Source: Selaginella moellendorffii (lineage: Eukaryota > Plantae > Lycopodiophyta). From it: a stretch of 64,000 nt of DNA. The notes under the pieces are model-generated. The model was not told the DNA's origin. It made no database searches and worked only from the letters and a program-made list of their open reading frames with translations. This document shows, piece by piece, positions 1 to 64,000 of this stretch. The stretch lies in contig NW_003314321.1 in the NCBI RefSeq assembly GCF_000143415.4, positions 248,001-312,000 of the forward strand. Direction: 5' to 3'. Numbering within the stretch: position 1 is the stretch's first letter; every line of letters begins with the position of its first letter. Both the position numbers and the translations under genes were made by a program.

Positions 1-589
1 GGAAGAAAGATTGTGAGAGTTAAAATTACCAACACTAGAACCCATAGACATTTGTGGGTGTATTTCCCTTTTTTCGAATGAGAGTGTGAATGAAGATCTA
101 TAAATTCTAGACAGTATGCTACAACAAACCCCTCAAGAATGTATTCTACAAAGAACCAAGTCTTTCTTTTATATGCAATAAGCTTACATCAATGATTATT
201 TTTTTTCCTTTCAAACGGTTATATGGCTTCATATAGAATCTTATTTCAAATTTAATAATTTTTTAATTCTGACAAACCTAACAACATTTACTAGTCAGAA
301 AGCATAGAGTACAAATTTAAAGAAGTGACAAGAATACTCTTTTTGCAAACATTTTATTTTATGTTCTAACAAATGTCTCTATCATTGCATGTAGTAAATA
401 TTTAAATTATTAGAACAAAAAGTGTTCTTTAGAACATTTTTATCTATATAATATATAGAGAGTTATTAAATTATTAGGTTCGCCATAACCTTAAAATTTT
501 AAAATTTATAATGTTGGTACTAAATTACAATTGAAAATTGAGCTCAACTCGTGAGCTCAACTCTTCAACTCGTGAGCTCAAGTATGGTC

Positions 590-1025
590 CGCGCCCATTT
601 CCACACTGAATCTACCAATCCTTCTATTGTGTAAACTAGCTATTCCATGTGAGGCAACTAGTCATCCACCTGTACCGCAGTCTCACGGTGCATACTTTCG
701 TCTATGGATACTCCACACAAGAGGAAGGACGTATGTATGGATGCCCAATGCGTACGATTTCAAATTTAGGGGTAAGAATATATCTTGTTCAAGGGTATAT
801 TATATTTTTAAGTAGTCATTAATCAATGGGAATCAAACCCTTGCCATTTGCTTCGATACCAACTGTAGCGCACCTTATCGCTCTCCCCTTAAGCTAACTG
901 GAAAAAGGGCAATTGCTTGATGAGAGAGCCTTTAGTGGCTATTTTATCCCCATTTATCCCCCAAGGTTCCAAGTATCCACAGTGACAGTATATCCAAATC
1001 TCATTCCATAATCACATATGCTACA
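590..1025 (-). mobile_element. Truncated family-B LTR element: 162-bp LTR (864-1025), tRNA-Met PBS and leader
   Basis: The minus strand reads TGTAGCATATGTGAT...GTGCGCTACA followed by TGGTATCGAAG (PBS, 851-861). Segment 590-860 is the reverse complement of 15285-15550. Confidence 0.85.
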
Positions 1026-1768
1026 TTTCCATTGAGTAAAAAACCTTTTAAATAAACCACGTACCATGAGATGGGGAAATTAGACTAAACTAAATCATCC
1101 ATTATACTCCCTAAGTGGACGATGATAGGAGTTGTAATATTGTTGTTGTCCCACTTGTATGCACATTAAGTGTTCAATAGACTTTGCTTGGACAAATGGA
1201 AGAATGTTCGTCAAATATTAATCCCATGACTTAGCATTAGCAACTCGTGGTAATTGTGAAGGTAAACCTAGCTCCATTGGGAATATTGGATCATGACCAT
1301 ATATGAGTTTATATGGTGAAGCACCAACAAAACTTTGCACCCCTGTGACATATGCATACCACAGAGACGGCAAATAACCATTCTAATCCGAATGTTGAAA
1401 ATTCACATACTTCGCAATCATTCCTTTGAATGTCTAAATGAGCCATTCCACTAAACTATTTAAAGTGTGGCATATCCCCAACCGAGACGTCAAAATATGA
1501 AATACCTCAACCATAAATGTGGGACCATTATCCAAAAAATTTACTCTAGATAAGAATGCTAGAAAACCACTCAATTGAGGAGGAAGTATCCAATAACAGT
1601 TGTATAAGCATTAGTAAAAGCACCAACTTCCACTTAACGAGTTAAATAGTCAAAAACAATAATAATATATTCATTGCTAACAATTGATCATGGAAAAGGT
1701 CCTATAAGATCAAACACCACTAACTCAAACAAATGAAAAACTACAATTGACTCCAACCATCCTTTCAT
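1026..1768 (-). pseudogene. Degenerate Ty3/gypsy integrase, 3' part of the old family-A copy
   Basis: Colinear with 30360-30890 of the younger copy, with many stops. It continues at 19822. Confidence 0.85.
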
Positions 1769-2347
1769 TATAGCATATGTGATCATGGAATGAAATTTAA
1801 ATATACTATCACCGTGAATCCTTGGAACCTTGGGGGATAAATGAGGATAAAATACCCACTAAAGGCTCTCTCACAAACAAGTATCCTTTTTTCCAGTTGA
1901 CTTAAAAGCTCTATTTCATTAAAGTGGGAATTGTCATTATCCCACTTGTAAAATAAGGTTTCCAAACTTTTATATAGTATATAAATATAACAAAATTTAA
2001 CTGCATTGAGGCACATGCCATTTTATTTTAAACAAGGAAATGTCTACTCAATCACTTCTCCTCCCCCTGCCACTGCTTCACCTCTCTCTTCTCCTTGTCA
2101 TTGTCGTCCAATTTCTTTCCATCCTTTTAATATTGGCTCAGTTGCTCCGAGTCTAGGTGGAGCCCAAGTCCCCATTCAATCTTTACTTTCCCCTTATTAA
2201 TAAAACAACTTCGTAGACTTCCAATAACATGCTGTAACACTTCTAGTATAATGCAAATCCTCTCAAAGAATTGTCTTTTAATATTAATACAATGGCATGG
2301 AACCCCATGCCATAATAAGTTACATTTTTAAATAAATACATCCCATC

Positions 2348-3210
2348 TCAGACTATTATTTTTTGCCTCCAACGCCTATACAATAATCTTGGAATTTCAT
2401 CACTCTCCACACTATCAGGATTTAAACCCAATAGTAATGCCATCTCTTCTCTAATACGTCCACGCTCATGTTCAGTGGTTGAAGAACCCATCCGGTTGAG
2501 CAGATTATGGAGATGCGGATAGTGCTTGGCTAGACAATATACATGCCATAAATGATGACTGGTGTTTGTCCGATCAAATGGCTTCTGATATACCGTTCCA
2601 TCTGCCATTTGGTTGATTTCTGTAGCCACCTCCTGGACTGGCCGGTTCTCTATCACCATTGCTCCAAGCCGTTTTGCAAGGTCCCCCAGAACATACGGTT
2701 TCTTCTCCCTAGTTTCCATATTGCAAGAGATGGGGTGCATTGCATATGTGTGCGTGTTCGCTGCAATTTTAATCGGCGAGTCATCGATGATGAGGATTTC
2801 ACTTGACCTAGCAGTCCGGTTCATCACTACAGCCTCTGGCTTGACGAAGATGGGCTTGCTACCCCTCACATGGACCATAGTCAAACAATCCTCCTGCGTT
2901 AGGAGAAAGTCAAATGGTAATATTACTTACGTCTGATCGTGCATCATCTGTAGCAACGTTAATGCATTGTGGCACATCATGGATGTCCAAACTCCCAATT
3001 GCAAATTGAACACGGCCCTCTGTTTTAAGTGTCGCATGGTCATTATTAGATCCCGCAGTTTCTCCCGTGTGATTAATGTGAATCTGTCTCTTTTGACCAA
3101 CTTGCGACCGCAGGCTTTGGAGGGTGCAGTGACATTCGAGGACGAGCCACGCTCATGGGAGAAAAGGATACCGTTCAGATCAAAAACGATACAGTACCTT
3201 CGCTGTGACT
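2348..3210 (-). CDS. FCP1/NIF-like HAD phosphatase domain exon (one internal TAA)
   Basis: Motifs IVFDLNGIL, LGVWTS, FLLTQEDC, FVK and LIIDDSPIK..N occur in NIF order. ORFs 2927..3232 and 2348..2884 share a frame. Confidence 0.75.
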
Positions 3211-6200
3211 CTGAAATGAAATGCGTCAGCATAAAAAATGGTACAAGTCAATTTTACCATCTACAATATTAGCGAATGGTGCTCCCGATGGTCGTTCAGA
3301 GGGTTTTGGTCGAGGAAACGTGAAGGGCGGAAATACTCTCCTCTGCAATGTGGGGTCAATCGCATCCGATGGCGTGTGGGCACATGCCATTTCAGCTGTA
3401 GACTCTGGTACAACTGGCTCAACAGTGGCATGGGGTGGTTCCAATGGCGTGTGATCACACGCCATTTCAGTTGGTGCCTCCATTGGCAAAGTGGACATGA
3501 CCGAACAGGCAGCAGGGGCGGTGTAGGGAGGTTCCAACGGCGCGTAGTCAGACAATTGGGCACACGTTGAGTCCGTTGGAAATGAGGATACGACCGGCTC
3601 GGTGGCTGGGGCGGCCTCATGCGGGTCCAATGGCGCCTGGTCACCGTCAGTTGGATACGTGGACAAGATTGACTCAGTGGTATGGGCAGCATCAAGTGGA
3701 GCGTGGTCAGCTTGCTTGGCGTTGATATGGATAGTAGCCTCCACCAGCTCTGATGACTCTTGCAGGAAAGTAGAGTCCATTGGCGGATCCATATGCATGT
3801 CCAAATATCTCCCTTCGATTGAGATGGTATCCTCCCGTGCTACTAAAAACAAACTCATTAGCACATTGAATCGACTATACTGTATTTACCATCAACTGCT
3901 ATTGAGGAACTAGGACCGATATCACTTGGGCGCACTGCTGATTCTGAAGGATTGGACATACGTTTCGACCCTTGCTTGGCACTATCCTTCCTCGACACTA
4001 AAGGCTAGAGTTTGTAAATTCAACTGAATAATCTCTACTTACCATTTGCTCTGCGACCTACATAGACAATGTTAGAAATGGTAAAAGGTTAGGAATGGAT
4101 GTACTATTATTTACCTGATGGTTTGTCTTGTATAACCTTCCTCCGCTACTCTTTGGCCACCTCAGGCTGGCCATCGTCGTCATCATCATCGTCGTTGTTA
4201 TTGTGATCGTCACCATTGTGAGGACCATCCAAGTCCTCTTCGTCCTCCTCTTCTTTGTCCTCCTCTTCGTCCTTCTGCTCTTCCTGCTCATTATCTTTCT
4301 CTAGCTCCTCATCCCCCTCCTGCATTTCTTCCATAGGCTGCTCAGGCTGGATGGCTTGTTCTTCCAGGACCATCTTGGGAAAATCATCTGGCCGAGTCTC
4401 CATCTCAAAATACAACACATCCATAGCCTGTTTTAGTGTGTGACCTAGGACCGTATCCTCACCCGACTGTCTTAACATGGTTTCTGCACGTTCTTGCACC
4501 CTTCGAAGACGACGAGATGAGAAAAACGTGGCCCTGACTTGAAAAGCATCCCTCATCCATTGTACCTCTCCATTGAGATTGGGGAAGGGGAGTCCGCCAT
4601 AGGAATCTGAGTCAGAAGGTGGTGACTGGCTGCTTTCACTCAGCCCTTGATCTACAATGAATGGCATGAGCACACACGCCATAACCGCGAGGCATTACCT
4701 ATCATCTTTTCGTTGCCCTTCTTCCTTTTCGAATCAAACGCCTCTGATCCCGACGACTGTCCAACGTGCTTTCGCTTTTTATGACCACTGTCAGTTTGAG
4801 CTTGGCTGGTGCTTGCCTGTTTTGCCTTTCAAGAAGTGTCTCCTGCAAGGAATGGCATGAGACCACACGCCATTGCAAATATAATTTGTACCTCCTTTTT
4901 TCCTATTGCTTGTCTGTTTGTCCTTCTTCGACGCGCCACTAGTGCGCTTTTCAGTCCTCGTGTCTGAATATTCACAACAATCTATAATTAAAATGGCGTG
5001 AGGCCTCACGTGACCTTACCTTGTGCAAGTTGTGAGCTCGGCCCAACATGGGTATTTTCAACAGTAGCTGTTAACGCCGTTTCAGCATCTGGGGGTGGCC
5101 ACGCTCCTGCATACAGAGCTTGTGAGATAACATTTAAACTTAAAGTGTGTACTCACCAGGTTCACAGAGAAGATACTGTTTTTCTTTGGCAACTGTAATT
5201 ATATGCTCCATTGAAGTCACCTCTTCAATGAAGTTTGTCACCGCAACACACGGGACACCCTTGAGTAGTGCGGCTCGAAAGAATAGTCCGCCGCAGTTGT
5301 ACTCGACAACGCATTTGCCCTTGGAGTCGGAAGCAGGTGACCCACCCGCTATTGTGTTGAAGACCCAGTTGAGCATTTCCCATGCTGCACCTGGAGCTTT
5401 CTTTGGATTCGAAAGCTCCATAGCCGTCTTCAGTTCCTCAGGCACGGGTAAATTGACCTCCCTCAGATCAATTCGATCGGCCTTGTCGAACGAAGCTAGG
5501 AAGTCACTCCAGTCCCACTCTGCTGCAGGACCAATAACAAGGGCGAGTGTGATGATGCGGACATTCGTCGGTATCTTCTTCTTAGCCATTATCCCATGGA
5601 TCTCCCGCATCTCCTTGCCTTTCAACCGAGCCTTCATCTCGTTCAAGGCCTTCCAGAATTTGTGATAGGATTCGGAGTTGTAGATCATATAGTGGACTGA
5701 AGATTCCACCTCCGCAAGTCCCACCATTAAGTCAATGATGGAGCTGACTTCGTCTGCATGAGTGATCTCCTCGTTTGTGAAGTCCACCACACAAAAGATG
5801 TTCTTGACCTGCTCATCTCCGCGGGAAACGATGCTCCTCCACCTTTGATCCTCATCCAAATTCACGTATACCCAGTAAGGTTCTCGATAGGCCTTTGCTG
5901 CGGGGTCGAGCTGTTTCTGAAGCCGGCGGTCGACATCCCTCTTAATGAAATTTGGATACTGATCCAACTTCTCAGCTTTACTTTTCGTGGCATCCCGCAG
6001 CAGATCGATGAACTTGGGGGCCCCCTTCACGTACTCGTCGATGTCTTCATTTGACAACTCCAGCGCTTCCATCATCTCTTGCGTGGTGTCGATGCTCACC
6101 CTCTCCACGGCCACTTGCTCGAAGATCCAATCCTTCAATAGCGCACGAGCTCTCAAAGTCGTGCACAAGTCCTCGTATGTCACAATATGGCCGGGAGTCA

Positions 6201-6659
6201 TTTTGGTCTTGTTGAAGACTACCTCACCACGTAGAAGAGCATTAGCCACTATCAGAAGGTCGTCGTCGTCTAGAGACCACGAGAAACGCAAGGCGTTGAG
6301 CTTCAAATCATTGGGCTTCCGGCCGTCCTCCACACCCATTGAGTTTAGCAACTCCCCGTCATGGTACCTCCTCAGCACATCTACCCATTTGTCAAAAACA
6401 ACTTTTGTCGCGAGTAGAATGTTATGGATGCTGAGTGTGTCATTGACCCCCAGTGTTTTCGAGAGAAGACTCGAGAATTCCTGCAATGGAAATGGCGTGA
6501 GGCCACATGCTATGCCACATGCAACGAGGCTTACCTGCCAGGCGCTAGTTGCTAGTGCACGTCCTTGTCCTGGTTTTTGTGGCTTCTTCAGTTGAACCCA
6601 GAGCTTCCGTGTTCGTGCCAATGTCTCGTGCAGACCCGATTTGTAGCACGTTTCTTGCT

Positions 6660-7050
6660 TGACATTCTGTGCGTGGGAGATGTATATGATAGATCGGAGG
6701 GGCGAGTTGCCTTTTATCAGGCGGACAACTCTTGTCTTGAAAACTTTCTTCACCTCCTCGCCCACCATAATATCCACAACTATCTCTTGCATCGCCAAGC
6801 TAGAATGCTGCCCGGAGACGGCATAGAACCGGATGTTCTGATCGTCCAACACCTTCCTATTGATCAAGTCTGGAAACCTCGTCTCGCCCTTCATTGTTCG
6901 GTAGTAGGGGATCACGTCTGCGATGTCGAGTGTTACTGGACTTGCCAGCATCTTCTGCTTCAGTTTCTCCACCCACTCATCAGATACTAGCCTGTGGTTG
7001 TATTTGCTTTGGATGTCGATACGGCTCACGTCGATTGTATATACTTTGTT
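6660..7050 (-). other. ParB/Sulfiredoxin-like N-terminal domain within the cargo protein
   Basis: IDVSRI..NHRLVSDEWVEKLKQKM...FYAVSGQHSSLAM...VVRLI..ISHAQN matches the ParB/Srx pattern, with GQHS in place of GxxR. Confidence 0.6.
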
Positions 7051-8430
7051 GGAATAGTAACAAGTACTATTATCTGCGATGATTTTTGCTGCCTCTTCTT
7101 GCTCTTTCTGCTCTTTGCGGCTCTTCTTTTTGGTGGGTGTAGTGTTCGAACCCGAGGCAATGGCATCACCGAGTAGCTTCTTTTTTGGAGCAGGAGAGTC
7201 GGATGTCGACTTGAGCTTGACCACCCTTTTCTGCTTCGGGGTAGTTTCCAGATCGACCCCCTTCCCCTTCGCTTTGCGAACTGGAGGCACTCTCAACGGC
7301 TCAATGTTGGAATATAGTTTTTGAACATCGCCGTAGGTGAGGTCCGTGGATTCCATGTGATCTTCATAGACCCGCAGCGTCTTTGAAATTGTGGGCCTCC
7401 TGGACAACCTCTCCCTAGCTCCCTCTAGGAATTCCTCATAGCCGCTGCCCCCCTCTGGGAAGCCACTAGGATGTGCAAGGTGGATCTTGAAGGCAGACGC
7501 TGTCTCTACCACAAGTGCCAGTCCATATTCTTGCATGGAACTGCATGGAGTGTCTGTCACTTGGATGAGGATCCCCATGCATTCTTTTCTCCCACCATCT
7601 GTGTTGTACAGCCTTAGATCCTCGCCTTCCATCCCAAAAGTCCAACTGGTGAGCTCCTCCCCCTTCTCTGCATCCACATTGACAATGGCTGGAAGAAGAA
7701 CGCAATTCCTCGCCTGTTCAGAAATGCACAACAATTAGAGCTAACAGATGAAAAGCTAGCAGCTGGAAATAACGTTAGGCCACACGCCATTCACCACTGC
7801 ATCAGATGTCTTGAGGCTGCATCCTAAGATGGCGTGAGGCTACACGCCATCTGTAACCGGACTGCACTCGAGAGCCCAATCAGTGCATGCCAATGTTGCT
7901 ACTGAATGGCATGTGGCCTCATGCCATTTTCTACTTGGCTTAAAAGACTTACCATTTGAAGCCGAATGGAGGCGTGACAATCGAGGCCGGACTCGCTGGC
8001 GAATGTGCACTGTGTGTGCAGCGGATTGTAGCAGCAAGGCTACTCTGCCACTTACAGTTGGAGAGTGGCGCTGAAATCTCCCGGGACGCCAAGTGGGCTG
8101 CGTGTGGGTGGCGGAGTGGGCGGCGGAGTTGGCGGCGAAGTTACAAATTGGGTGTGTCTTGAAGTGGACGCCGATGCACACGAGCGCGATGCGAGCGCGA
8201 GTGTGATGCAAGCACGAGTGGACGCCGATGCACACGAGAAACCTGTAGAGAAGGTAGATGAGCGCGAATGTGAGCGTGATCGCGAGTGGGAGCGCGATGC
8301 GAGCGCGAGTACGAAGCAAAATGCAAAACCTAACCTCACACACGCGAAATGTCACGACGGTTGGTAATCCCGCCACGTCATCATTCCTCGGACTTGGGCG
8401 CCACCATTAATTTCTGGATCGCCGCGCGCA

Positions 8431-8558
8431 TGCATGCACGTGAAATCCAAAAGAAATCCGCAACGTCATCATTCCTCGGACTGCATGCACGTGAAATCCA
8501 AAAGAAATCCGCAACGTCATCATTCCTCGGACTGCATGCACGCGAAATCCAAAAGAAA
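8431..8558. repeat. 51-bp tandem repeat, about 2.5 copies
   Basis: Unit TGCATGCACGTGAAATCCAAAAGAAATCCGCAACGTCATCATTCCTCGGAC. Confidence 0.9.
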
Positions 8559-9231
8559 GATCATGATTGGGATATCATTTAATACCCTCGCTATATTTAT
8601 ACCATGCATGATTGGATATTCCAAAGCATCTTGTATTTCCAAAAATGCCAGATGTTCAGCTAAATAAAGAATGGTATACAAAAAATCCCAAAAAATGCAC
8701 CAAAAATGCTCGGCGTCATCTGGCGTTATCTCTTGAATGGCGTGGGGCCGCATGCCATTTTCAGGGGCACATAGGAGTATATTCCTAGAATATTCTGACA
8801 CACGCGAGATTTTTTTGAGTTTTCTAGAGATCCAACCGTTAGATCGCAACTAGATTTTACAGAATGGTATACAATGTCTTTCTTGATGACCCTGCAAAGA
8901 AGCATCTCGATCGGACACCACATGAGACCACACGAGCCTTACAATGTTTCAGGGGCATTTGCCATAGATCCGACCGTTATTTTGCTCCAAGATTTTACAG
9001 TTTGGTGTGCATTGACCTTTCCATCGACACTGCAAAGGGACATCACAATCAGATGTGGGATCACAAGAAACTAACTTCACTAACTCTGGTTTCACCAAGA
9101 TCTACGTAAGGAGTTATGAAATGAAAGGACCCTCTCTATTGAAATGTGTTTATGGTCCTAGGGGCATTGTGACATATCAAAGGATTTTGCATCAAGTTTT
9201 GTATTTGCATGTTTATCAAGCTATTGAATTG

Positions 9232-9257
9232 CTAAACCCTAAACCCTAAACCCTAAA
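9232..9257. repeat. Interstitial plant telomeric repeat / telo-box array (CCCTAAA)x3
   Basis: ctaaaccctaaaccctaaaccctaaa between the two divergent TE genes. Confidence 0.85.
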
Positions 9258-10552
9258 CATGTGGCAAATGCTGCGTGAAGAAAGATGCCCTTTCTGGGCA
9301 AATGCTGTAAGAGGCAGATGCCGAGCAAATGTATCTCAGGCTAGCGAAGGGGACAAACGAAAGCTAGCTATAAACATGACGGGATGCAAATAGATTACTA
9401 GGCTGGTCCTGCGAAAATCAAAAACCATAATTGAAAACATTGAAAATGCAAAAAGAAAGGTTTATAATATTTTTGAATTTTAAGCAACCAAAGGAATGTA
9501 AATAGGGCATGTGTTTGTAAGTTTAAAAATGCCTCAACCACTTAAATTCCCAAGTAAATAAAGCTATTTCTATTTTTGGTACAGATAAACTTTATAGCGT
9601 GTGGGCTCATGCAATTTTGAACCCAAAAATGCACCAAAAAATGCTCGACTAGCATTATTCTTTGAATGGCGTGTGGCCTTATATTGCCATAAATGGACGT
9701 ACACACACAGCATAATTATTCCTTTACACGGCGAATAATCTTGGTGCGGATCGCTGATATGGCATGGCAAAGTTCAAATCACTGACATGGCACAGCTGGA
9801 TCGAGGCAAGGACATGATGTGACAAAGTTCAACCTCCGACAACAAAGTCTAGAAGCTACTCAGTTTGAAATTTGTCAGAGGAATCATAAGATCTGGTTTG
9901 TCAGAGGATTTGATGTGACGTTCAAGCGTGTGTTATTTTTGAATTCTCGAACTCATTCCTAGGTCTATCATTTTTGTGTGCCGTGTTCTTGGTTCCGCTG
10001 AGCGCAGTGAGCGTTGCTTGTGTAAGCGGCGTTGTGAGCTGTGGTTTATGCGTCTACGAGTGGTTGCGGCATTGCGAGCGCCATTGCGAGCGGCAGTTTA
10101 TGCGAGTGGCAGTTTGTGCGAGCGGAGCTACGAGCAGTTGCGGTGTTGCGAGCGGCGCTACAAGTAGTTGCGGTGTTGCGAGTGGCACTGTCTTTGGTGT
10201 GGCTACCGCTTCCTCTTAATATTCGGCACTTGTGCTTCCTGGTATGTTCACCATGGAATGGCTTAGGACCACATTTAGAAATGGCATGAGGACACATGCC
10301 ATCTTGGGCCCTTGCAATTTCATGGCTAGCGTATTGTCATGTATGTTTTTACTTGCCTGCAGCTGTGTGTATATCAAGATGGCATGAGGCCTCATGCCAA
10401 TTTTGTGAATGCGAAATTTCACGTGGGTGTCAATAGCATGTTTGAATAATGGCATGTGGCCTCATGCTATTGAGGTTGTTTGGTATGTTATGATTTAGGC
10501 CATTCTCCAATCATTTTTTGCATGGTCTTAACTTCTTTTCTGCACTTTCAGA

Positions 10553-13500
10553 ATGGCCTTCAGGGTTGGGGAAAAGGTTTACATTTTGAATGGTGGGAAG
10601 AGAGTTGCAAAAAGGACCCTTGTGTCTATGGATCGGAACTTTGTTATACACTGTCAAAGGCTTGGGGAAGGCAATGCTGCTGTATCAGTAGAGACTGTCT
10701 TCGATGGGAATGTGGTCGCTATTGAACGAGGAGAGATGGTCGTCGGGGTAAATGTTGTTGTTGCCTTGAAAAATCTTCAGAAGAAAGCAGATGTTGGGGA
10801 CAGCGCAAGTGCGACGCATGTTCCCTCCGTGGATCTTAAGAACCGTGCTACATGGATTCAGGCAAAGGTGTTTCTAAACAACCCCGAGGGGGAGGTGGTA
10901 GCTGAGGGCTTAGCCACAGTTGTCGATCCAAGAGATGCGGTTGCTAATCAAGAATTGGGCTGGGATGATATTGGAGTTGCGATTTTAGAGGTTGTTGACA
11001 CAGAAGAAAACAGTTTGACTATTGGAAGCATTGTGCGGTGGAAATTGAGGCACTTAGTGTTTGAGAATGTGAAGGATTCACAATCAAACACCACTACAAC
11101 TGATGACAGAACATCTCTTCATGGGAAAAGAAAGTACACCTTCCTAAAGCGCAGCCAAAGGGATCTGAGCAACGAACCGAAAAGGCAGAAAATGGCGATG
11201 GAGGTTCGAATGGTCTTGACAGTTGCTTGTTGCAAGAGGAGGTGCTGTCAACATGCTGATTGGGATGCTATTGAAGAGGAGAGAGCAAGATACAAGACAT
11301 TGTCCTGGAAGGCAGCTCGCAATTTTGTGTATGAGGCATTACGGTCATCTGTTGATGCTTCAGAACATCAGGTGGGGCGCATGGTCTTCCAGAGGGGTTT
11401 GGTCTGCATGAAGGCATGGAGAATCATTTATGGAGTCCCTCGAACCACATTCTACAGAATCAAAACTGAGTTCGAGGAACAAAGGGTTCAACAGGTAGTC
11501 CATAGGAACGACGGTACGCACAAAACCAGGGGTCATGTTGTATATGGAGAGGCAATCTTCAAGAGGTTTGTCGAGACATGTAGCGAGCAGCAACCACATA
11601 AAACCCGCCTCTTGGAAGATGGAACACGAGACACCCAACGAGTTCTCCCTTCCATGTATACCAAGGGGGCCATATTGGAAGATGTGAATCGGGAACTCCA
11701 GAGTAATGGCTACAGGAAGCTAAGCCAATCTAAATTTAGTAGATTGTGGAGCAACAGGTTCAGGGATGTGAGTATAGGAAAGTACTCCAGCTTTTCAAAG
11801 TGTGACGAGTGCACTGCTATCAAAATGGCTTTGTCGAAGAATTCTTGCAGCGCTCAAAAGTGAGAGACGTTGGTTAGAAGGCGGCTCGACCACAACATCG
11901 AGCAGAGAAGCTGCAGGACTGCATATTATCATAACAGGATTCTCTCCATGGAGAGACCTAACTCTTACTTCTGCATCATCCACGACAAAATGGACCAGAA
12001 AAAGACGTGCTTACCTCGACTCAATCCTGCCCCCAAGGCAATCTCTTCATCCATGCAGCTGCCTGTGTCTCTGTTTGGCATAATCGCTCATGGGCATGGT
12101 GCCCAGAACTATGGGAACTTCTTTGTACCTCTATGGGGTGGCGGGGGTGCAAACATGATGATTGCGTCCCTAGCAAAACACTTAAGGTCTCTGCAAAGTG
12201 CGCAGACTGAGCTGAACGGCCAACCCTTGCATAAGGCCCTTGTCGATCGAACCCCATACAGGGTTCAGCTGGAGGAGGAGCAAAGGCTTGCAGTATCGCG
12301 TGGGGCCCCATGCCATCCCAGTGAATATGTTGGCCGTCAGATTGTAGGGTTATCACGTGAGGCCTCATGCCATTCCGACGAGGCTGGTCGCCCGGTGAAT
12401 GCACAGCCTCATCCAAACGAAGCAGAATCTCAAGGAAGTTCTTGCGGCTGATGTGGCCTTCCACCCCATCTTCTGCTCCAAACAGACAATGCTGGCAGTG
12501 AAAACAAAAACATGTACGTCTTCGCGTACTTGGCGATGCTTGTTGCCAAAGGCATATTTGAAACGGTTACACTTGGCTTTCTCATGGTTGGGCACACTCA
12601 TGAAGACGTCGATGCCATGTTCAGTCACCTGGCAGAGTCCCTCTAGTGATCCAATGTCCTCACCCTCCCACAACTCTACGATGAATTCCAAAATTGCATC
12701 AAAGGTACTGTTGAAGCTGGACTTGTGACAGAGGTTCCAGACTTTAAGGGGTTTGTAAGAGGCTACATCAGGGACGGATCCGAAACGCTGATTGGCCACT
12801 CCAAGCCTCTTCAGTTTCATTTCAGCATGCGTGACGGTGCTCCAGTGATGAGGTACAAGATGAGAGAATGGGACACAGTGTGGCTGCCAGTGGACGGCAT
12901 TGAACTCTTCAAAAGAGATCCCATAACTGGGGAACCTATGATTCCTCAGGGTTCCCCACGGCCGATGCACCCGGATGGACTCAAAGACCAGGAAAGTATA
13001 GTGGCCGGGATTAGACAGCATATTGCCTTCTGGAAGAGGGGGTTGGTGTTTGGTGGAGAATCCTATTTTCAGAGGTGCAAGCCTTTGCTCGAATACTGGG
13101 AGAAGATTATATCTGCTATCCAAAATGGGCCGGTTGTATATGAAGAATTGGAAGAGTCCTTTTGGCTAGAACCCAGAGCACCAGATAGTAGCGGAACAAT
13201 GTCCTCTGGAAATGCAGTGACAGATAACGATGTTGAGGATCACTATTGTGGGCCGAGGAACAAGAAGCCGGATTCAGCATTCAATCCAGTACAGGTCTGC
13301 AAAGGAATGGTCATGCTTGTCAGACCTAGTAATAAAAAACAAATGATATGGGTGGGGCACTGCATCACTGATGCAGAGGAGGACGCAGAAACTAACTCCT
13401 TCAATGTAACTGTGGAGTGGTTCAAGCCAAGTTCCGGATATACGAAGGATTGCCTAGAAAAGAGATGGGTGCTGAATCCAAGGGATCCCAGCATGAGCAT

Positions 13501-13693
13501 ATCGGTGGATAATGTTGTGCATGGTTGGATGTGGAAGCAGAGTGCCACCATCACCTTGCCAGACCATGCAAGAGATGCAGCAAGAGCATTCATAACCCGG
13601 GTTCAAGGTGAGATTCATTAATATTCCTTTACTAAGTTTCTAATGTATTTTATTTCAAGGTGAACAATCCGAATCTGAATCAGAGGAGGCGTG
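10553..13693 (+). pseudogene. Sola-like DDD transposase of about 1,020 codons with 4 in-frame stops
   Basis: ORFs 10553, 11870 and 12725 share one frame. Motifs: CCKRRCC, VCMKAWRIIYG, KCDEC, IIHDKMDQ, LLQTDNAGSENKN, FLMVGHTHEDVDAMFS. Stops at 11861, 12449, 12644 and 12647. A probable short last exon (EQSESESEEA*) ends at about 13693. Confidence 0.85.
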
Positions 13694-15581
13694 ATGGCAT
13701 GTGGCCTTACGCCATTCCTAGGTGAGATGATACAAATAACAAGTATAAATTCTTAGTTGTTCTAGCAAATCTTACTTAAAGTTCAAGGTGAACAAGCCGA
13801 ATATGAATTCATCAGATTGTTATAACAAATTGCGAGGTGATGGCATGAGGCGATACGCCATTTGAGAGTGGTAGCCATTCCTATATGAGGTGAGTGAAAT
13901 ATTTATTAGAAATACCTCATTCAATTATGCACTTCTAAGTCTTGGTCCACTCAGTACTGTTTGCATGTTTCTATTTTAATTCTTTCTCTAAAATGTTATT
14001 TAGCATGTGGCTTCATGCCATTGCTCTCCACAATCATGCATTGAATTTTTCTATCCTTGCATAATACTTCTCCATATATATAGCATGTGTGCACATGTGA
14101 TATGGTTCATTAGGCCTGATATAGTGTGTGAGGTAAAACAAAGATGATGTGACATATGCATTTACCAATCACACGTGCATAAATCTAATAATATGGCGTG
14201 TGGCCCATATTAATGGCACATAAACCCATATTGTGGGCTTACGTGCTTTATGACCATCATTCCCTTGCAGCGTGTGTGTTGGTTTCCTTTTATAACACAA
14301 CGAACTCCATATTTTTGGGTGAAGAGCGTTCTCATGGCAAGCACAAAATCTGTAAGTGAGGCAGAAAAGGAGACGGAGAAGGAGATAGGTGAAGATGTAG
14401 AATATATAAGTCTTCCAAACTCCCCGTACTATACTCCAGGTGATCATTTTTTTGAACAAACGGCAACATTAACAACTATTGAGAACGCCCCAATAACGTC
14501 AGAGACAACAATCCAAAGCAAAACAACTGACCCGGAGAAGGATGATAGTACCGCTGAGAGTACCAAAAAGGAGGTGTCCACTAGCGCTTAGGCTTATAAT
14601 GGCGTGTGCCCTCATGCCATTTACTTGATCACCAAATACTTTTTTTCCTTTGCACTAGTATATCTTAATACCGGTTTGAGAAATAGAATGGCATATGCCC
14701 TCAGGCCTTTTACTAAATCACCTTTGAAAGAAATGCAAGCCTCTATGTCGTAAAAAAAAGGTACTAGAGAAATTCCTTAATAATATGAATGTTATTTAGT
14801 TTCATGAAAATACACTAAGGGTCAAATGAGTTAAATGACTTCTCCAGACTAGCAATGCCTCTTGCTACACCTTCACAATTAGATTCGTTAGAAAAAGATA
14901 ACATTGAATAATATCTAAATGTTCTCACCATTAAGTTATATGTCTGGCTAATAGGAATGACGTTCATCTTGGAAAGCTCACCACACGCTCAATGAACAAA
15001 CAAATAGTGTGTGCGCGCATGCCATCGCTCTTCTTTAGCTTCAGATTCGGCTTGTTCACCTTGACAATGAGATTTATTATACAACCAGATGGACTCAGTC
15101 TGGACACAAAGTCACCGCGCTAGTCACCATGCCCCAGATATGTCTAGCCTCTGGACAAAAAACATATAATTTCACGTCATTTTCAAATACTTGAAAATTT
15201 GTACCTAGTCCCATTTTACTGAATAAATCCCACTTTAACGAAATAGAGCTTTTAAAGAGAGAGAAATAGAGTGTGCTACATGTGGTATCAAAACAAATGA
15301 CATGGGTTCAATTCCCATTGATTAATGGCTACTTAAAAATATAATATACCCTTGAGTAAAGTATATTCTTATCCCTCAATTTGAAATCATACGTATTGGG
15401 CATCCATGCGTATATCCTTCTACTTGATGGAGCATCTACGAACAAAGATATCCATCATGGGACTACTGTATGGGTGCATGACTAGTTGTCTCATATGGAA
15501 TAACTAGTCTACATAATAGAAAGATTGATATATTTAGTGTGGAAATGGAAGTGTTAGTTCCCTTTGGCTTAGTAAGGGTTG

Positions 15582-18210
15582 TGTGAGACACAAAATCCCT
15601 AGGCCCCAAAGTGGAGCCAAAAGGGTGCCACGTGGTAGTGGCCAAAGTGAAAGCCAAACAACAGTAACACGTTTACACTAAAAGTTCCGACTTGAAAGGT
15701 TGACACGTGGTAGTGGCCGAAGTGAAAGCCAAACAAGCGTAACACGTTTAGACTAAAAGTTCCGACTTGGAGGGTGGAGAGCGAAAGTGAAACTCCCAAC
15801 AATGTGCTTGAGGAATGAGCACGAAGTGAGCAATAAGCGAGGCTCTAAAAAAGGGACCCAAAAGGACCAACACATGACACGTGGAAGTGTCCAAGATGGA
15901 GTCCGAGGTGGACCGAGACGGAGTTCGAGATGGAGTCCGAGATGGAGTTTGAGATGGACCCTAGATGGAATCTGAGATGGAGTCCGAGAAGGACCCAAAA
16001 TGATTTGCTAAGCAAGATTGGCAAGTTAGGGGAACAAATCCCCTAGTCGAAGGTGCTAACTTCAAAAGGGGTGGCCCATGGGGCCGAGCATGGAGGAGTC
16101 CATGCACGATCACAGATTTGTCAAGTAAAAGGACTTGGCAGTGTGGAGGAATTAGGTTCCTAAGCTATGATCTATAGTGCGCTTTAAGTACATATTAGTG
16201 CACCGGCGTGGGGAGTCACACCAGGCATCCTGTGCGATGCCATCCGTAGATGCATATACGGAAGTTGGGTTCGAGTCCCGACCCTCTAGTACTTGGGTTC
16301 GAGTCCCGACCCTCTAGTACTTGGGTTCGAGTCCCAAATCACTAGGGCATGGTGATGGTTTGGAATATGAGGACACTCATTTTTCGGTGGTTATGGACTC
16401 TTAGTGAGGAGACTGGTTTGGGCACACCGCCAAGCGAGGGATGCCTCGAAGTCGTGATGCACGGTTAGATAGTTTAGTGTGGCTCAGCATATCTAACTTG
16501 AACACTTTGGTGCGAGTAGCACCAAAGACGTGGTGAATGAGATGGGGACACCTAATCTCAGTTGCTATTAACCCTTAGCTGTAAGGGCTGGCTTGGGTGC
16601 ACCGCCAAGTGTAGGGGATGCCCCTAGGGTTATAGTCAACAACTTGAAGGTCTAGAAGACCAAGTACTTTTTGACAACTCTGTTAATATGCTAAAGTGAG
16701 ATCATTAGGTGATCTTATGGCTAAAACAAGGACAAAGTCATTGTGAGGTTAAGGGATAAAGTTCCTAGTTCAAAGTGTTGATTTAAACTATTGATGATGG
16801 TGTGGCTTGTTCAAGGTGACCAAGTGCAAAGAACACCTGAGGGAAATGATCTGTGACAGTGCGATGGCATAGTGAGTCCGAAGAAAGTAGTCTTTATAAA
16901 AGACCCATGGTAGGGTCACAAAGTTGGGCCAAGGATAAAGCCCACAACAGAAAATGCTAAAAAGACGTACTAGGGGTGGACACCTTTTGGATTTGGCAAA
17001 GTAGAGTCTTTGCTATGGAACCAAAAAGATACTTTGAGAATAGAGGTAGCGATTCGATGTTGCTAGGTGCAACAATCAAGGATAGGAGCAAAAGACTAGT
17101 GGCTAAGAAAAGAGCCATGGGAATAATGGGAAAAAATTCGAAAAACAAATTTAAGCCAAGAACACTAATGTGTTAGGTACTAACAAATTGTGGGAAATGC
17201 AATGTGTTTCCAAGGATGGATTTCCAATTGCTCCGATTGGGCAAAAGTGGAGGCTCTAAGGGAGGGAGCGGTAAAGTAGCCAAATGATAGGGTCATGGAT
17301 AGCTCTAGCACAAATTATGATAACTGGAACTTAGTGCCCAAAGTGGCACGAAATAGAAGAGAGGATGATGGTGCCCTTAAGTAGAGAACTTCCTAGGATG
17401 GGGAAGTGGAGTTGCACAATACATGCAAAGCAAAGTGTCGGAGACACTTAGGAAATTGGCTTTGAAAAGTCAAAAGTAAAAGTTCCAAACTGCAAAGGTT
17501 ATATCGATGGAAACTAAGACTACTCGAGATGGAATAATGGGATTGATAGAAACAGTGTCTCTAACAGGTTTAGCGAGAACTAAATCAATAAAAGGAAAGA
17601 ACCACCATAAATGGTGCAATCAGTCTTTAAGTTGAAGAGACTATCCTCCTTAAAGGATGGGTAAGGCATGGTGAGCCTTTGGTGTCAAACCATTAACGAA
17701 TATTGGTGAGGTGCTAAGAATGGAAAGGGTAATACATGTTGATGTTACTTTATAAAATAGTTCATCATTTGATAAGGACATCAAACTTCATCTATGGGTG
17801 GTGTTGTTGTGAGACATAAAATCCCTAGGCCCCAAAGTGGAGCCAAAAGGGTGCCACGTGGTAGTGGCCTAAGCGAAAGCCAAACAAGCATAACACATTT
17901 GGACTAAAAGTTTCAACTTGAAAGGTTGAGCGCGAGAGTGGAACTTCCAACAATGTGCTCAAGGAATGAGCACGAAGCGAGCAATAAGCAAGGCTCTAAA
18001 AAAAGGACCCAAAAGGACCAACACATGACACATGGAAGTGTCCGAGATGGACCTGAGATGGAGTCCGAGATGGAGTCCGAGGTGGACCGAGACGGAGTCC
18101 GAGATGGAGTCCGAGATGGACCGAGATGGAGTTCGAGATGGAGTTCGAGATGGACCCAAGATGGAATCTAAGATGGAGTCCAAGAAGGACTCGAGATGGA
18201 GTCTGAGGTC
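15582..18210 (+). repeat. About 400-bp direct repeat pair (15582-15998 and 17808-18210) inside family B
   Basis: Both copies start TGTGAGAC..AAATCCCTAGGCCCCAAAGTGGAGCC and end in GAGATGGAGTCC arrays. Confidence 0.85.
16265..16335 (+). repeat. 28-bp tandem repeat (x2.5), each unit with a Pol III B-box-like GGTTCGAGTCC
   Basis: Unit TTGGGTTCGAGTCCCGACCCTCTAGTAC. Confidence 0.85.
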
Positions 18211-18370
18211 AAGACCGAGACCGAGACTAGGACCGAGACCAAGACCGAGACCGGGACTGAGACCAAGACCAGGACTGAGACCGGGACTGAGACCGAGACC
18301 GAGACCGAGACCGAGACTGAGACCGAGACCAAGATTAGGACCGGGACCGAGACCGAGGCCAAGGCCGAGA

Positions 18371-18416
<46 letters not shown>

Positions 18417-18506
18417 ACCCGAGCCCGAGTCCGAGTCCGAGTCCGAGTTCGAGTTCGAGTTCAAGTCCGAGTCCAAGTCTGAGTCCGAGTCCGAGTTCGA
18501 GTCTGA
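18040..18506. repeat. Compound 12-mer/hexamer satellite (GAGATGGAGTCC, GAGACC, GAGCCC, GAGTCC)
   Basis: Directly visible. It explains the low-complexity ORFs in several frames. Confidence 0.95.
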
Positions 18507-19821
18507 GAGGGTGAAAGCCCAAAGTGTTTGTCTCCCAGACCCTGGGGGATTTAGTGAGCTCCAAAAGTATAATAAGGGGGAGGACTACAGTGGAGCCAAT
18601 TTGGCCAGGAAAGGCCAGTTTGGCCCAAGAATGCTATACCCAGTGTTGGGTGATGAGCTGCCCACTGGGAAGTCCAAGACTAAAGTGAACACGGACTGAC
18701 AAGTGGGGTAGCTTGGTGAAGTGTTCAAGAGCCGGCTCTAGTTCCCCCAGGAGATCGACTAGCCGATGCTCCCAGTCCAAGTGTGGGTGGCATTACCTAC
18801 TTGAATACCTGGTGTGGCTTAATGGAACTTCACTCTAAGCCCATGGCTAGAGCACCCAAAGGCAGAAGGTGGGGAGAGTACCCATGAGGCTTGCGTAAGG
18901 CCACGGTGTTCCGAAATGTTGTCCTAAAGGCCCAAACTGTGCAAAGGAAGAGGAGTAGTCCTCTGGTGTAGTGACCAAGGATACAGTCGGGTGGTGCAGA
19001 AGTCCCAGAGAACCGTGGGACTTAGTGCTCGGGCCTATGGGCCTCGATGTAGTGGCAATGTTGGCGAACATGGACAAAAAGGGACTTGGTGGGGACTGGA
19101 AAAGGGATATTGGGGATGGCTAATCCCTATGTCTATGGGCATCCTAGGGATGCTAAGGAGTGGATCTGGGATAATCACTCGTGAATGGATGGCCCAGTCT
19201 TTGAGAGACGGGACTGTGATGTAGGTGGTGTTAAACCACTAGTGTGACCAAGGTGAAGGGGCATGGCCTTAGCATAACAGGCTGATATGTCGATGATACG
19301 TTGGGGTGTCGGTCATGGGATCGAACACGTGAAGCATTTGGACCAAGTGCAAAGGTTGAGTGGCAGGGATGCCATTCTTGGGGCTAGTAAGCCTAAGTCC
19401 GAAATAGAACTTATGGAGGTTGTGAGTGAGACTCTTCCAAGTGGTCGGAGGTGTGGTTAAGTGACTAAAGTAGAATGGAAAATTTAGTCACTTACAGGTT
19501 ATTAGTGAATAGTCAATGAGGACATTAACATCTCTGAAAGGGGACGGGGTTAGTATAACGCATTTGATCATGGAATGAAATTTGGATATAGTGTCATTAT
19601 AGATCCTTAGAACTTTGGGGGATAAATGGGGATAAAATAGCCATTAAAAACTCTTTCATCAAGCAATCGCTTATTTTATAATTGGTTTAAGGGAAGAGAG
19701 ATATAGTGTCATTATGGGTCCTTAGAACTTTGGGGGGATAAAAAAGCCATTAAAAACTCTCTCATCAAGCAATTACCCATTTTCCAATTGGCTTAAGGGA
19801 AGAGAGATATAGTGCACTACA

Positions 19822-22800
19822 TCTATGGCATGAGAGGGAGTACTATGAGCTTAGCACCAAACACAGATATGCACATACTAGATAATATTATGTTGCATAG
19901 AAAGAGCCAATAAAAAGAGCTGTGCAACTTCTCAGTCACACGACAATGTCCCATATGCCCGCATAGAACAGGAGAATCATAATAGGCATGGAAAAACCGT
20001 GGAATAAAAACAGAAGGCACTACTAGCCATAAATGATTATTAAAATCTGTCCCCATAAAATAAAGAAGGTTGTCTTCAAAGCAATATTGAGAACGTAAAT
20101 GCCAGAATGGTAAGTCATTAGCAAGTGATGTAGGATGCTCAAACCCATTTCGAAACCATCGAATCCATAGCTAAATCTTTTGAGCTTCGTGAACTTCATC
20201 AAGAGGAGGTAAATCTTTCTTTGCACCTTGTGGACACTAAGTATCAAGTATAATAACTGCCAACGGCATAGAATCCTCGTTTAGAAAATCCATAGATGCT
20301 GGAAGAACAGGCTCATGAGAAACATGAGAAGAGAGTGTAGAAGGAAGAGGACCTTAAGAAAGGGCATTAACATCAGCCATAAAACTCCTCAAGTGATGAA
20401 TAACATCAAAATCAAATGTCTGAAGCTTCAAAACCTATTGAGTAGTACGACTAATTAAGTTCTTTCACTTCAATAATGAAGTAACGGCAGTACCTTTTAG
20501 TAACGTCTAAGATTCATGTAGATATGCATGAAGTTTTTCAAAACCTTAGACTACTGCTAAACACTCTTCTATTGTGGAGTAGTTCATCTCTGCTGGTTGT
20601 AATGTATAGCTTATATACACAATGGGATGGCACTAACTAAGCACACTCGAGCTCTCTTGCATCAACATGCCTCCAAGACCAATATTAGAAGCATCCACGT
20701 GCAAAATGAAAGGTCAAGTATAGCCAAAATATGCCAAAATCAAAGGAGCCGTCAATAGCTCTTTCAGATCCATGAATGCTTGCTCACAATCTAGAGACCA
20801 AATGAAAGATGACATTGATGACTTCAGCATCACTTGCAATAGTGTAGTGTGATTAGAAAGATGATTCACAAAACAACCAAGATACTGCACCTTTACTAAG
20901 AAGCGTTGAACATCATTCACACACTTCGAAGTAGAAAACTTTAAAACAGCCACAAGTTTGTCAAGATCAATTTGCAAGCCTTCATAAGAAATATGGTACT
21001 TAAGATAAGTTGTATCCTTGGACCCAAACACACACTTCTACCACTTCAACTTTAAACCAACATCCCATAATTGATCCAACATTTTACAAACATCACAGAT
21101 GTGTTCCTTCCACATCCCTTCTGAGTGATTGAAGACATCACTAATAAAGTCAACAATTACCTTTGGCATATTGCAAAAAACCTCGTCTATCATCTGCTGG
21201 AAAGTTGTTAGAGCATTGTTCAAACCAAATAGCATTACCAAGAACTCATATAAATCAAATAATGTACAAAAAGTAGTCTTAGGAATATCTTTTTCAGCCA
21301 TCGGTACTTGTTAGTACCCAGAAGCAAGATTTAACTTGGTGAACCAACAACTTTTTCCCAAATGATCCAAGAGATCAGCAGTGTGAAGAAGAGGGTACAC
21401 ATCCGAAATCATCACTTCATTTAATAAAAGATAGTTGATGCATAAACAAATACCCTTATTAGGCTTCATCACAAGATGAGGTTCACATGCTCAAGGACTC
21501 TGCAACTTTTGAATAACAACGTATCTGGTTGGAATCAGATGACGTGTGGCAATCTTGGCCCTAGACAATAGGTTAAATTCAAAAAGATCAGCATACTCTT
21601 TCATGAGTCGGTCAACTACTGCAACACAAAGACTGTTGGAGGGATCGGAAAAGGGAAGAGCGAAATAAGATAAAAACATAGGAGGAAGTAATGGGGAGAT
21701 AAAATAATGGAAACAAAGGTGGAAGCAAAAGGCTGAAGAAGTACAGAAGTGAGAGGAATGGATGAAATAGGAAGTATAAGACAACCAATCTATACCAAGG
21801 ATGAGGTCAAAAGCTTGACTTAACACTACCCGCAATGACTACAACCCAAGCTTGAGATCGCCCACACGCACAACTAGGTTTGCTTTATCCCATGTATGAA
21901 GTATACATGTGTACAGCCGTTGCCATAAAGAATAAAAACTGGCTCCACCGCATGACACAAGTGTAAACAGCAATGTGTGGCAACAGGTCGACCAATAGAA
22001 AATAAACTCAAATATATTTCAACCAACATAGAGAGAATAATAAGAGACCTTTTGTTATAAAAATGAGTTTGGAAAATAAACACTGGATAAACTAGTGCCA
22101 AGTGAACCCATTGATGATACTCTCGAAAGAAAGATGAAGGGGTCACTGACTTATTCGCACAAGGTCCCTCTATTACTCACGCGACTTTTTGTTTCCTGAA
22201 TGCATCTCGATGTCTAGACTTGTAATAGCACCAACAGGATGTTGTTGACACCAAGGTCTCCACTTAGGAAATGGAAGTTGCCAATTTGGAAAATGCAAAT
22301 AACACCGATAAGTGTAACTAACTTCATCATATGCCTAATAATAAACATCACAGCCACAACCACGTCCTCACCCTTGTCTTTGGACTCGAGCAATAGTAGC
22401 ATCAACTTCCATTAGAACATGACTATCACCCACAGGAAGTGGAATTAAAGGACGTGCAAGGAGAAATGAAAAAATCGACGTCTCATAATGTTGTGCCAAG
22501 TGAAAAGCATTGTCAAAGGTGGCTAAAGCAAATGTATGAAAAAGTCCAACAAAATCTTGACAAAGTGCTAGTCACAACATTTATATCTTGATCTGCTCTA
22601 ACATATTTGGCTCTACATGAAGCAAGAGGCTTCGAAAACAAATGCCAAATTGCATCATTAGCTCAAATGGCCCTTGACAAAGACAGTGCAATTGTTGAAA
22701 GGCATCATCACAATCGTCGGCATGTTCGAATGTGCGTTTGAAGACGTTCGGGAGAACACTCTAATCCTCATGAGTGGCTGCGCTCAAACCATTGTACCAT

Positions 22801-33100: not shown

Positions 33101-33395
33101 CATGCATATGCATGTGTACGGCCGTTGCCATAAAGAATGAAAACTTGTTCTGCCGCATGACGCAAGTGTAGACGACAACATGTGGCAACAGGTCGAGCAA
33201 TAGAAGATAAACTCGAACCTGTATCAACCAACACAGAGAGAATAATAGGAGACTTCTTGTTATAAAAACGAGCTTGGAAAGTAAACACCGGATGAACTGG
33301 TGCCGAGTGAACCCCTTGATGATACTCCCGAAAGAAAGATGGAGGGGTCACTGATTTATTCGCGCAAAGTCCCTCCGTTACTTGCGCGACTCCTC
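30147..33395 (-). pseudogene. pol: Pol (protease, RT, RNase H, integrase) with nonsense mutations and 3' deletions
   Basis: LVDTGS, FIDDVL, DASDIG, HHCC and the integrase core (DLIGP, SDNG). In-frame TGA at 31789 and TAG at 30496. Confidence 0.93.
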
Positions 33396-63099: not shown

Positions 63100-64000
63100 T
63101 TAATATTTGCCTCATGTTGTGAAAGAATAGTTTAAATCAAATTGTAATTTCCCATTTGTTTAAGTTGGCAGTATTTGATCTAATTAGGCCTTTTTTATTG
63201 TCAACTACTAGTAATGAATATGTCATTATTGCTTTTGAGTACTTGACTCATTAAGTGGAAGTTGGTGTTTTTGCTAATATATCTAACTATTATTGGATAC
63301 TTCCTCCATAATCCAATGATATTATAGCATTCTTGTCTAGAGTGAATTTGCAAAAATAATAGTCTTACATTTATAGCTGAGGTGTTTTATATATTGATGT
63401 TTTAGTTAGAGATATATCACACTTTCACGAGTGTTTATTATCCACAGTGGTGGAATGACTTATTCAAACTTTTAAGGGGATATCATAAACTAAATAAACT
63501 TTAAGCATTTGAATTATAATAGTTTGTTGCCATATCCTAGTATGCATATATTATATGGGTATAGAGTTTTATTGGTGTTTCACCATATACACTCTTATAT
63601 GGTCATAATTTTATATTGCTAAATTTACTTTTACAATTGCCACGAGCTATTGCAGGATTAATATTTAATATTCTTTCACTAGTTTGAGTGGAGTCTACTA
63701 AACACATAGCCTGTATATATGTGGGATAACAACAACTCTCATCATTATCCACTTACTAAGTACAAAGTGGATAACTCAGTGTTCATTCATTTTCTTAATC
63801 TTATGATATATAATTTATCTAAGTGACTCTTTACCTAATGAAAGGGACCATGTCAAATGTTTTAGCGAGTTGAACTATAAATTTATAAGGTTCATTACAA
63901 CAATAAGCCAATCTTCTAGAAATTATATATGTACAATGACTAAAGGGTATCATCCCAACCCATCAAGAAAAGAACTCTAATTGACTTCCATCTTTCCAAG
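63100..64000 (+). pseudogene. Highly decayed family-A gypsy integrase
   Basis: gcagtatttgatctaattaggcc...aatgaatatgtcattattgct...gaagttggtg aligns with FDLIGP..NEYVIIA..VEVG of the 30.8-kb integrase. Confidence 0.75.

Follow-up and report, generated by a model that had tools for sequence, protein, structure and literature searches.

A 22-bp palindrome dispersed through a Selaginella DNA transposon, and a candidate element-encoded protein that may bind it

Results

We analyzed a 64 kb window of the Selaginella moellendorffii genome (contig NW_003314321.1, positions 248,001 to 312,000), in which PPR, F-box/Kelch, 2OG-Fe(II) and Ty3-type long terminal repeat (LTR) sequences mark land-plant DNA. 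Near its left end lies a DNA transposon, here called element X, with two divergent genes: one for a candidate transposase and one for an accessory protein whose predicted N-terminal domain resembles ParB. A 22-bp palindrome is scattered from one end of the element to the other (Table 1).

Table 1. Element X, its genes and its palindromes. Positions count from the first base of the window; palindromes are named by their start.
Feature	Position	Strand	Remarks
Element X, DNA transposon, 13,346 bp	1906..15251		TTAA on both sides, terminal inverted repeats, empty-site paralogs
Left TTAA target-site duplication	1902..1905
Right TTAA target-site duplication	15252..15255
Left terminal inverted repeat, 28 bp	1906..1933	+	no palindrome half-site
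Right terminal inverted repeat	15224..15251	-
Accessory gene	2348..7955	-	predicted 11 exons and 10 GT-AG introns, 1638 amino acids
ParB/Srx-fold domain	6685..7056	-	motif SGQHS where ParB has GERR; model and fold search
N6/N4-methyltransferase-like fold	5158..5886	-	catalytic motif degenerate (VDFT); fold seen on a homologue
Acidic (D/E-rich) tract	4170..4345	-	translation
FCP1/NIF-like HAD phosphatase domain, last exon	2750..3196	-	DLNG replaces DxD; PF03031
Transposase gene	10553..13696	+	DUF7869 core 12458-12868; predicted intron 13608-13659
Palindromes 2000 (weak), 2292	2000..2313		downstream of accessory gene
Palindromes 3369, 3444	3369..3465		in tandemly repeated low-complexity coding stretch
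Palindromes 4661, 4852, 4993	4661..5014		one per predicted intron, three introns of 47-56 nt
Palindrome 6492	6492..6513		in 54-nt intron 6481-6534, after ParB-like exon
Palindromes 7769, 7829, 7906	7769..7927		predicted first intron of accessory gene
Palindromes 8737, 9594, 9666 (half-degenerate), 10281, 10379, 10449	8737..10470		between the start codons of the two genes
Palindromes 12295, 12352	12295..12373		in-frame transposase stretch just before best DUF7869 match
Palindromes 13694, 13840, 14000, 14080, 14599, 14688, 15004	13694..15025		transposase stop to right end; half-site 14193

The palindrome is confined to the element

The palindrome follows the word ATGGCRTGWG-NN-CWCAYGCCAT. A scan with this consensus, allowing up to six mismatches, found 26 sites with starts from 2000 to 15004 and none outside the element, that is, in the remaining 50.6 kb of the same window. 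A symmetric position weight matrix likewise returned 26 sites of at least 6 bits inside 1906-15251 and none outside, where the best score was 5.6 bits. In 200 Markov-1 simulations of the element, thresholds of 6 and 15 bits were reached by a mean of 0.49 and 0.015 matches, respectively, compared to 24 real sites at or above 15 bits, and the 23 seed sites scored 18.3 to 36.4 bits when each was left out of the matrix in turn. A first-pass annotation, made from the sequence alone, had described the palindromes as confined to the transposon and the copy at 3444 as perfect. Both statements hold within the window, and the similar density of matches that would have spoken against the first is absent. 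All 26 positions that it listed contain the word or half of it, although position 14193 is a half-site only (2.1 bits), site 9666 scores 10 bits, with one perfect half and one that matches poorly, and the annotation had overlooked a good site at 9594. The palindrome pattern had no match in viral contigs.

Within the core, positions 1-8, 10, 13 and 15-22 carry high information content, and 9/14 and 11/12 carry less. Both borders of the 22-bp core are sharp: a faint A/T preference extends to either side, and from three bases outside the information is close to zero. This profile agrees with the nearly fixed length of 22 bp, the conserved arms and the variable center described in the first-pass annotation. 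T7 is invariant in all 52 half-sites and C5 nearly so, while the CpG position reads CA in 29 of them, CG in 20 and TG in one. Together, the skew at this position and the invariant T7 suggest base-specific constraint with asymmetric decay; an ancestral CA arm would account for part of the CA:TG skew. The two arms vary independently of each other (R6/Y17, Fisher p=1.0). At positions 9/14, 16 of the 23 seed sites carry bases that are not complementary. Independent arms, T7, the near-invariant C5 and the depletion of sites from coding sequence all support the earlier suggestion that the palindrome would be a binding site for a dimeric protein rather than a satellite.

Outside the core, similarity falls to chance: the 15-nt flanks of the sites share a mean of 9.4 of 30 positions, compared to 9.0 for random non-coding pairs, in agreement with the first-pass view that the flanks are mostly unrelated. 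Target duplications around each copy would have marked the sites as independent micro-insertions or miniature inverted-repeat transposable elements. Duplications of 5-8 nt surround none of the 26 sites, and duplications of 3-4 nt surround one. The copies might instead have no function and simply be left over from internal duplication or gene conversion, or they might represent a sequence that tends to form hairpins and gets copied. Some of them are clearly segmental duplicates (3369/3444 and 13694/13840/15004), and neutral insertions would also be expected to avoid coding sequence. We nevertheless regard this origin as rather unlikely, because the cores have been kept while their flanks are at chance similarity, and because both the 29:1 ratio of CA to TG and the invariant T7 speak against it. 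The missing target duplications, unrelated flanks, avoidance of coding sequence and lack of covariation fit a site in double-stranded DNA better than a hairpin or a micro-insertion.

The sites avoid coding sequence

Most of the sites (22 of 26) lie outside coding sequence. Only four fall wholly within it, where 58% would be expected (p=9e-6), and all four are in low-complexity stretches. Seven occupy predicted introns of the accessory gene, six lie between the two start codons and nine lie downstream of the two genes. The accessory gene has nine short introns (45-57 nt), four of which carry one site each. The largest gap between neighboring sites is 1846 bp; when sites were placed with an unchanged division into coding and non-coding ones, 98% of placements had a longer largest gap (P=0.017). 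Site-bearing segments have been duplicated both directly and in inverted orientation (13641-13716 to 13783-13862 and 15003-15079), and the presence of several sites inside such local duplications suggests a route by which the palindrome may have spread.

The intronic sites raise the idea that the palindromes work by folding into hairpins, in RNA or in single-stranded DNA, whether as splicing aids, sources of small RNAs or introner-like units that create introns. Two of the seven intronic sites lie 9 nt before an acceptor, and in two of the four short introns with a site the word folds into a hairpin (z -2.5 and -1.6). In the other two, however, the z values are 0.45 and -0.99, five of the nine short introns have no site, and intron 6481-6534 occupies the same position in distant homologues. 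Additionally, many sites are intergenic, and Rfam gave no match in window positions 1-20000. The absence of covariation between the arms, the frequent mismatches at 9/14 and the two introns that fold no better than shuffled sequence argue against a selected hairpin, and we consider this explanation very improbable.

The outermost sites lie 94 and 226 bp from the element ends, and the right end is dense in sites. CACTA elements carry subterminal repeats, and the palindromes could similarly be transposase-binding sites that help to assemble or compact the transpososome. The candidate transposase contains a stretch resembling the HTH_psq helix-turn-helix (E=0.15, below the cut-off). Even so, this role is unlikely, since the terminal inverted repeats (TIRs) hold no half-site and most palindromes lie far inside the element, some of them in introns midway through the accessory gene.

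Alternatively, the sites might recruit a hijacked plant transcription or chromatin factor. The six sites between the start codons and the three that occupy the accessory gene's first intron would suit such a role, and a telomere-type repeat is also present between the start codons. Against this, no site occurs in the 50.6 kb outside the element, which consists of host genes and other repeats, and at 22 bp, with about 20 positions under constraint, the word is long for a plant factor. We therefore judge a host factor improbable.

Three other sequence features accompany the palindromes. The telomere-type repeat (plant type, CTAAACC x3.9, at 9232-9258) might serve as a telobox-like regulatory site. 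Upstream of the accessory gene, at 8431-8558, a 51-bp unit is repeated 2.5 times with 98% identity. The right arm contains a 113-codon open reading frame (14250-14591, plus strand) with no credible Pfam match, and a palindrome begins seven bases after its stop.

The accessory protein has a predicted ParB/Srx-fold domain

The first-pass annotation had named no protein that might read the palindrome, and the protein with a predicted ParB/Srx fold that the element itself encodes is a candidate. In this copy, its gene is interrupted by three premature stops (4831, 4148 and 2929). Most of the family has other bases at 4148 and 2928/2929, and 4831 is absent from the list of majority differences. In the stretch 2894-2930, we rejected a suspected intron and favor a stop specific to this copy. 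The predicted intron 6481-6534 coincides with a gap in spliced homologues, and several homologous reading frames break at the same donor. Contigs from run X20, which is RNA only by guess, run unspliced through the predicted introns, and we counted them as uninformative.

A full HMMER search of 1.84 billion representative sequences gave 10 matches, eight of them credible at 22-32% identity, with the named ones coming from Selaginella and the liverwort Calypogeia. The other two, a repeat-rich bacterial protein (P0004) and a repeat open reading frame (P0006), were dropped as spurious. Word-indexed protein searches found nothing, and sequence searches of the PDB, tblastn against phages, PHROGs, NCBIfam and PADLOC yielded no meaningful match. 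A metagenome scan with homologue P0016 found one locus, a bacterial glycosyltransferase region that we judged a chance match. The protein is also not described in the available text of the Marchantia DN4MT preprint or of PMC4738411. Four annotated Selaginella proteins (P0002 and P0012-P0014) consist of the helical and methyltransferase-like part only, with no ParB domain, and are possibly truncated or domesticated relatives.

We modeled the protein with AlphaFold (AF2) from 17 sequences; folding from a single sequence reached a predicted local distance difference test (pLDDT) score of only 33. In the model, the N-terminal domain has pLDDT values mostly of 70-87, with dips to 56-64. The seven top rows of a VIA fold search with this domain are all ParB/Srx-fold proteins (Z 6.6-9.2), among them SerK (Z 9.2, root-mean-square deviation (rmsd) 6.2, 93 residues aligned), Srx (8.3, 3.8 and 86) and SbnI (8.0, 3.3 and 79). 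BFVD matched it to phage Spo0J-like proteins (E=1.7e-5). As modeled, the N-terminal domain thus appears to have the ParB/Srx fold. A motif of the form [S/D]GQH[S/T] is found in 7 of 7 aligned sequences with G-Q-H invariant, and an upstream arginine and a downstream asparagine are conserved. In the clamp proteins ParB, Noc and KorB, a central helix-turn-helix reads the palindrome; here, a helical region follows the domain and aligns only loosely to KorB (rmsd 12).

The methyltransferase-like part is suggested by the homologue P0002. Eight of its 10 structure rows in the Atlas align to PF01555, with TM scores normalized by query of 0.36-0.41 and one that reaches the bar for naming, and among these eight, three clusters also carry ParB_N. 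In our own model this part is of low confidence and gave no methyltransferase match, and Pfam gave none either. Across eight aligned sequences only the aspartate of the motif is invariant (D233; VDFT, ADLR, CDSA, LDAT), and the fold likely no longer methylates. The domain in the last exon matches PF03031 (NIF) with E=3.1e-5 and 24.1 bits, compared to a cut-off of 21.8, when read through the stop with an X.

The transposase and the family of element X

The plus-strand protein matches DUF7869 (PF25273, E=5e-41), and its position between the TIRs together with its acidic motifs suggests that it is the transposase. This copy has four in-frame stops, at codons 437, 633, 698 and 699. The TIRs pair at 25 of 28 positions, and the element ends read AAG...CTT. 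Targeting of TTAA is reminiscent of Sola3, but Sola3 ends read GAG...CTC. DUF7869 was the only match. Four papers on which a comparison might draw (PMC5199201, PMC4455052, PMC5751038 and PMC10294476) give no definition of the Sola3 ends in their available text.

Several lines of evidence define the borders and copy number class of the element. Its flanks match a paralogous stretch (48/60 and 45/60) in which they are joined across a single TTAA, and two further paralogs share this junction. The left border coincides with the start of one skim-run contig, at exactly 1906, and contig depth is uniform along the element body. Long public contigs of the same organism label are about 99% identical to the body, and 92,229 contigs of run X1 map to 400-16000, most of them 95-100% alike, a contig depth that is not a copy number. 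Element X is a multi-copy family, which is probably young, and the present copy differs from the family majority at about 1% of bases. No majority difference is listed inside the cores at 2000, 2292, 3369, 3444, 4661, 4852 and 4993, in a table that omits differences near contig ends. In a diverged contig with a loose end at 4804, site 4852 keeps its arms and has a changed center. Contig joints in run X1 skip, replace or repeat site-bearing stretches at 4624-4684, 4944-5007, 8681-9605 and 9651-9682; these joints have short sides and give only a weak hint that family members have gained and lost sites.

We initially took 595-892 and 15252-15548 to be long TIRs of element X and rejected this assignment, as both are parts of a host element into which X is inserted. 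This older element (595-1023, 1771-1905 and 15252-15548) has inverted repeats of about 430 bp, and X interrupts it at a TTAA. Sequences similar to its interior (1027-1767) lie at 30424-30890 and 63120-63843, and parts of its repeat are found again at 19554-19821. Further along the window, the regions 15580-19500 and 30496-34310 contain a pair of LTR-like repeats with GTCCGA/GACCGA in tandem arrays, and a Ty3-type gag-pol split into three pieces, whose frames contain stops.

Discussion

On balance, we favor the explanation that the palindromes are bound by the accessory protein, which would thereby coat the element that encodes it and probably alter the element's chromatin. This explanation draws support from the 26 sites inside the element and none outside, their avoidance of coding sequence, the sites in short introns, the small largest gap, the lack of covariation between arms, the skew at the CpG position and the predicted ParB fold. 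We also count the published ParB-bearing accessory genes of Sola1 and PAG3, described below, as precedent. Under such a mechanism, the sites would have spread by local duplication inside the element and been kept by selection while their flanks decayed. The accessory protein would read them as a dimer, probably through the helical region that follows the ParB domain, and, by occupying the element from end to end, could allow its own family to be told apart from the rest of the genome. The FCP1-like and acidic parts might then act on RNA polymerase or chromatin and keep the element active, as do VANC proteins, anti-silencing factors that bind their motif and cause a loss of DNA methylation.

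A more elaborate version is a tentative possibility at most. In this version, self-marking would resemble that of ParB/parS: a ParB-fold protein would load at dispersed 22-bp palindromes, spread as a nucleotide-gated clamp and deliver FCP1-like and methyltransferase-fold domains to chromatin, with one protein-site pair for each family across plants, algae and fungi. Clamps of the ParB/Noc/KorB kind bind specific sequences, hydrolyze cytidine triphosphate (CTP) and spread, but CTP-gated sliding of the accessory protein is itself doubtful.

Several observations weigh against self-binding and coating. Overall, the spacing of the sites is no more even than random (coefficient of variation 1.07, P=0.80). 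Foldseek found no structure in the PDB at E<=0.001 (best 0.011), though nine of its top 10 rows are of the ParB/Srx fold, and we identified no DNA-reading helix-turn-helix in the accessory protein. N6/N4 methyltransferases carry the catalytic motif (D/N/S)PP(Y/F/W) and HAD phosphatases of the FCP1/SCP (NIF) type carry DxDxT/V. The methyltransferase-like part has VDFT in place of the former, and the FCP1-like part reads DLNGIL, lacking DxD, with no majority change listed at its asparagine codon; these alterations weaken the basis of the effector step. In the ParB of C. crescentus, according to the available text, R103 and R104 are needed for CTP binding (PMC8367383). The accessory protein has no GERR-type motif, and G-Q-H-S stands at the place of these arginines as mapped by motif. 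Finally, this copy has been deaminated: of the 36 positions at which it departs from the majority in run X16, 31 are A>G or T>C restorations. The observed/expected ratio of CpG is 0.69 inside the element and 0.80 outside. Any protection from methylation must therefore be incomplete.

The idea that ParB-bearing accessory genes of algal transposons act by binding their own element is already published, for Sola1 in Ectocarpus and Plavaka in Bostrychia. These two 2025 papers propose such binding, and their available text reports no test of it. Element X supplies a defined 22-bp candidate site with 26 natural variants, which makes the proposal testable by gel shift, and the majority of its multi-copy family lacks at least two of the accessory-gene stops of this copy. 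If the explanation is correct, the module would extend to land plants, a bacterial-type partition fold would read eukaryotic chromatin and the element would have a long, family-specific targeting word. Our literature search, whose coverage did not extend to subscription papers, Repbase reports or the Ectocarpus and Bostrychia supplements (which may describe such repeats), returned no long palindrome dispersed through introns and both genes, no land-plant case and no FCP1-like fusion.

Gene content is similar in Sola1-1_Ec32 of Ectocarpus (PMC12477816), a giant DNA transposon whose opposite-strand accessory gene encodes ParB-like and N4/N6 DNA-methyltransferase domains and whose authors propose that the product binds and modifies its own element. 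It comes from a brown alga and measures 21.5 kb with an accessory protein of 1104 amino acids, and the available text mentions neither binding sites nor an FCP1-like domain. Element X, in contrast, has a degenerate methyltransferase motif and 26 mapped, dispersed palindromes. In the Plavaka elements of Bostrychia (PAG3/PAG2; bioRxiv 10.1101/2025.02.11.637652), a ParB-like accessory protein again occurs together with inverted repeats, which are proposed to be its binding sites. As far as the available text goes, these repeats form tandem arrays beside PAG3 rather than being scattered over introns and both genes. In addition, the ParB-like domain is joined to a 2OG oxygenase, a separate gene carries the methyltransferase and the transposase belongs to another superfamily. 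A looser lead comes from fungi, where a language model ranks DUF3723 (PF12520) proteins as most similar to the liverwort homologue P0008 (score 0.93, 143-151 of 256 features shared); the accessory protein of the window has no Pfam match to DUF3723.

Among bacterial systems, ParB/parS and Noc/NBS resemble element X, as far as their available descriptions go, in having a ParB/Srx N-terminal domain followed by a helical region, as well as multiple dispersed palindromic sites. Element X differs in having G-Q-H-S rather than G-E-R-R, no ParA, sites of 22 bp rather than 16 bp, and a eukaryotic, intron-bearing gene with additional enzyme-like domains. A tested functional model for self-binding is provided by VANC21 of the Arabidopsis element VANDAL21 (PMC5735166), an accessory protein that, in the available text, binds a family-specific motif concentrated in introns, intergenic DNA and terminal non-coding regions. 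That motif is 9 bp long, non-palindromic, arranged in the same orientation and multiplied by tandem repeats, and VANDAL21 is a Mutator-like element. The two systems are nevertheless alike in that a family-specific motif is concentrated in the non-coding parts of the element, as are 22 of the 26 palindromes in element X.

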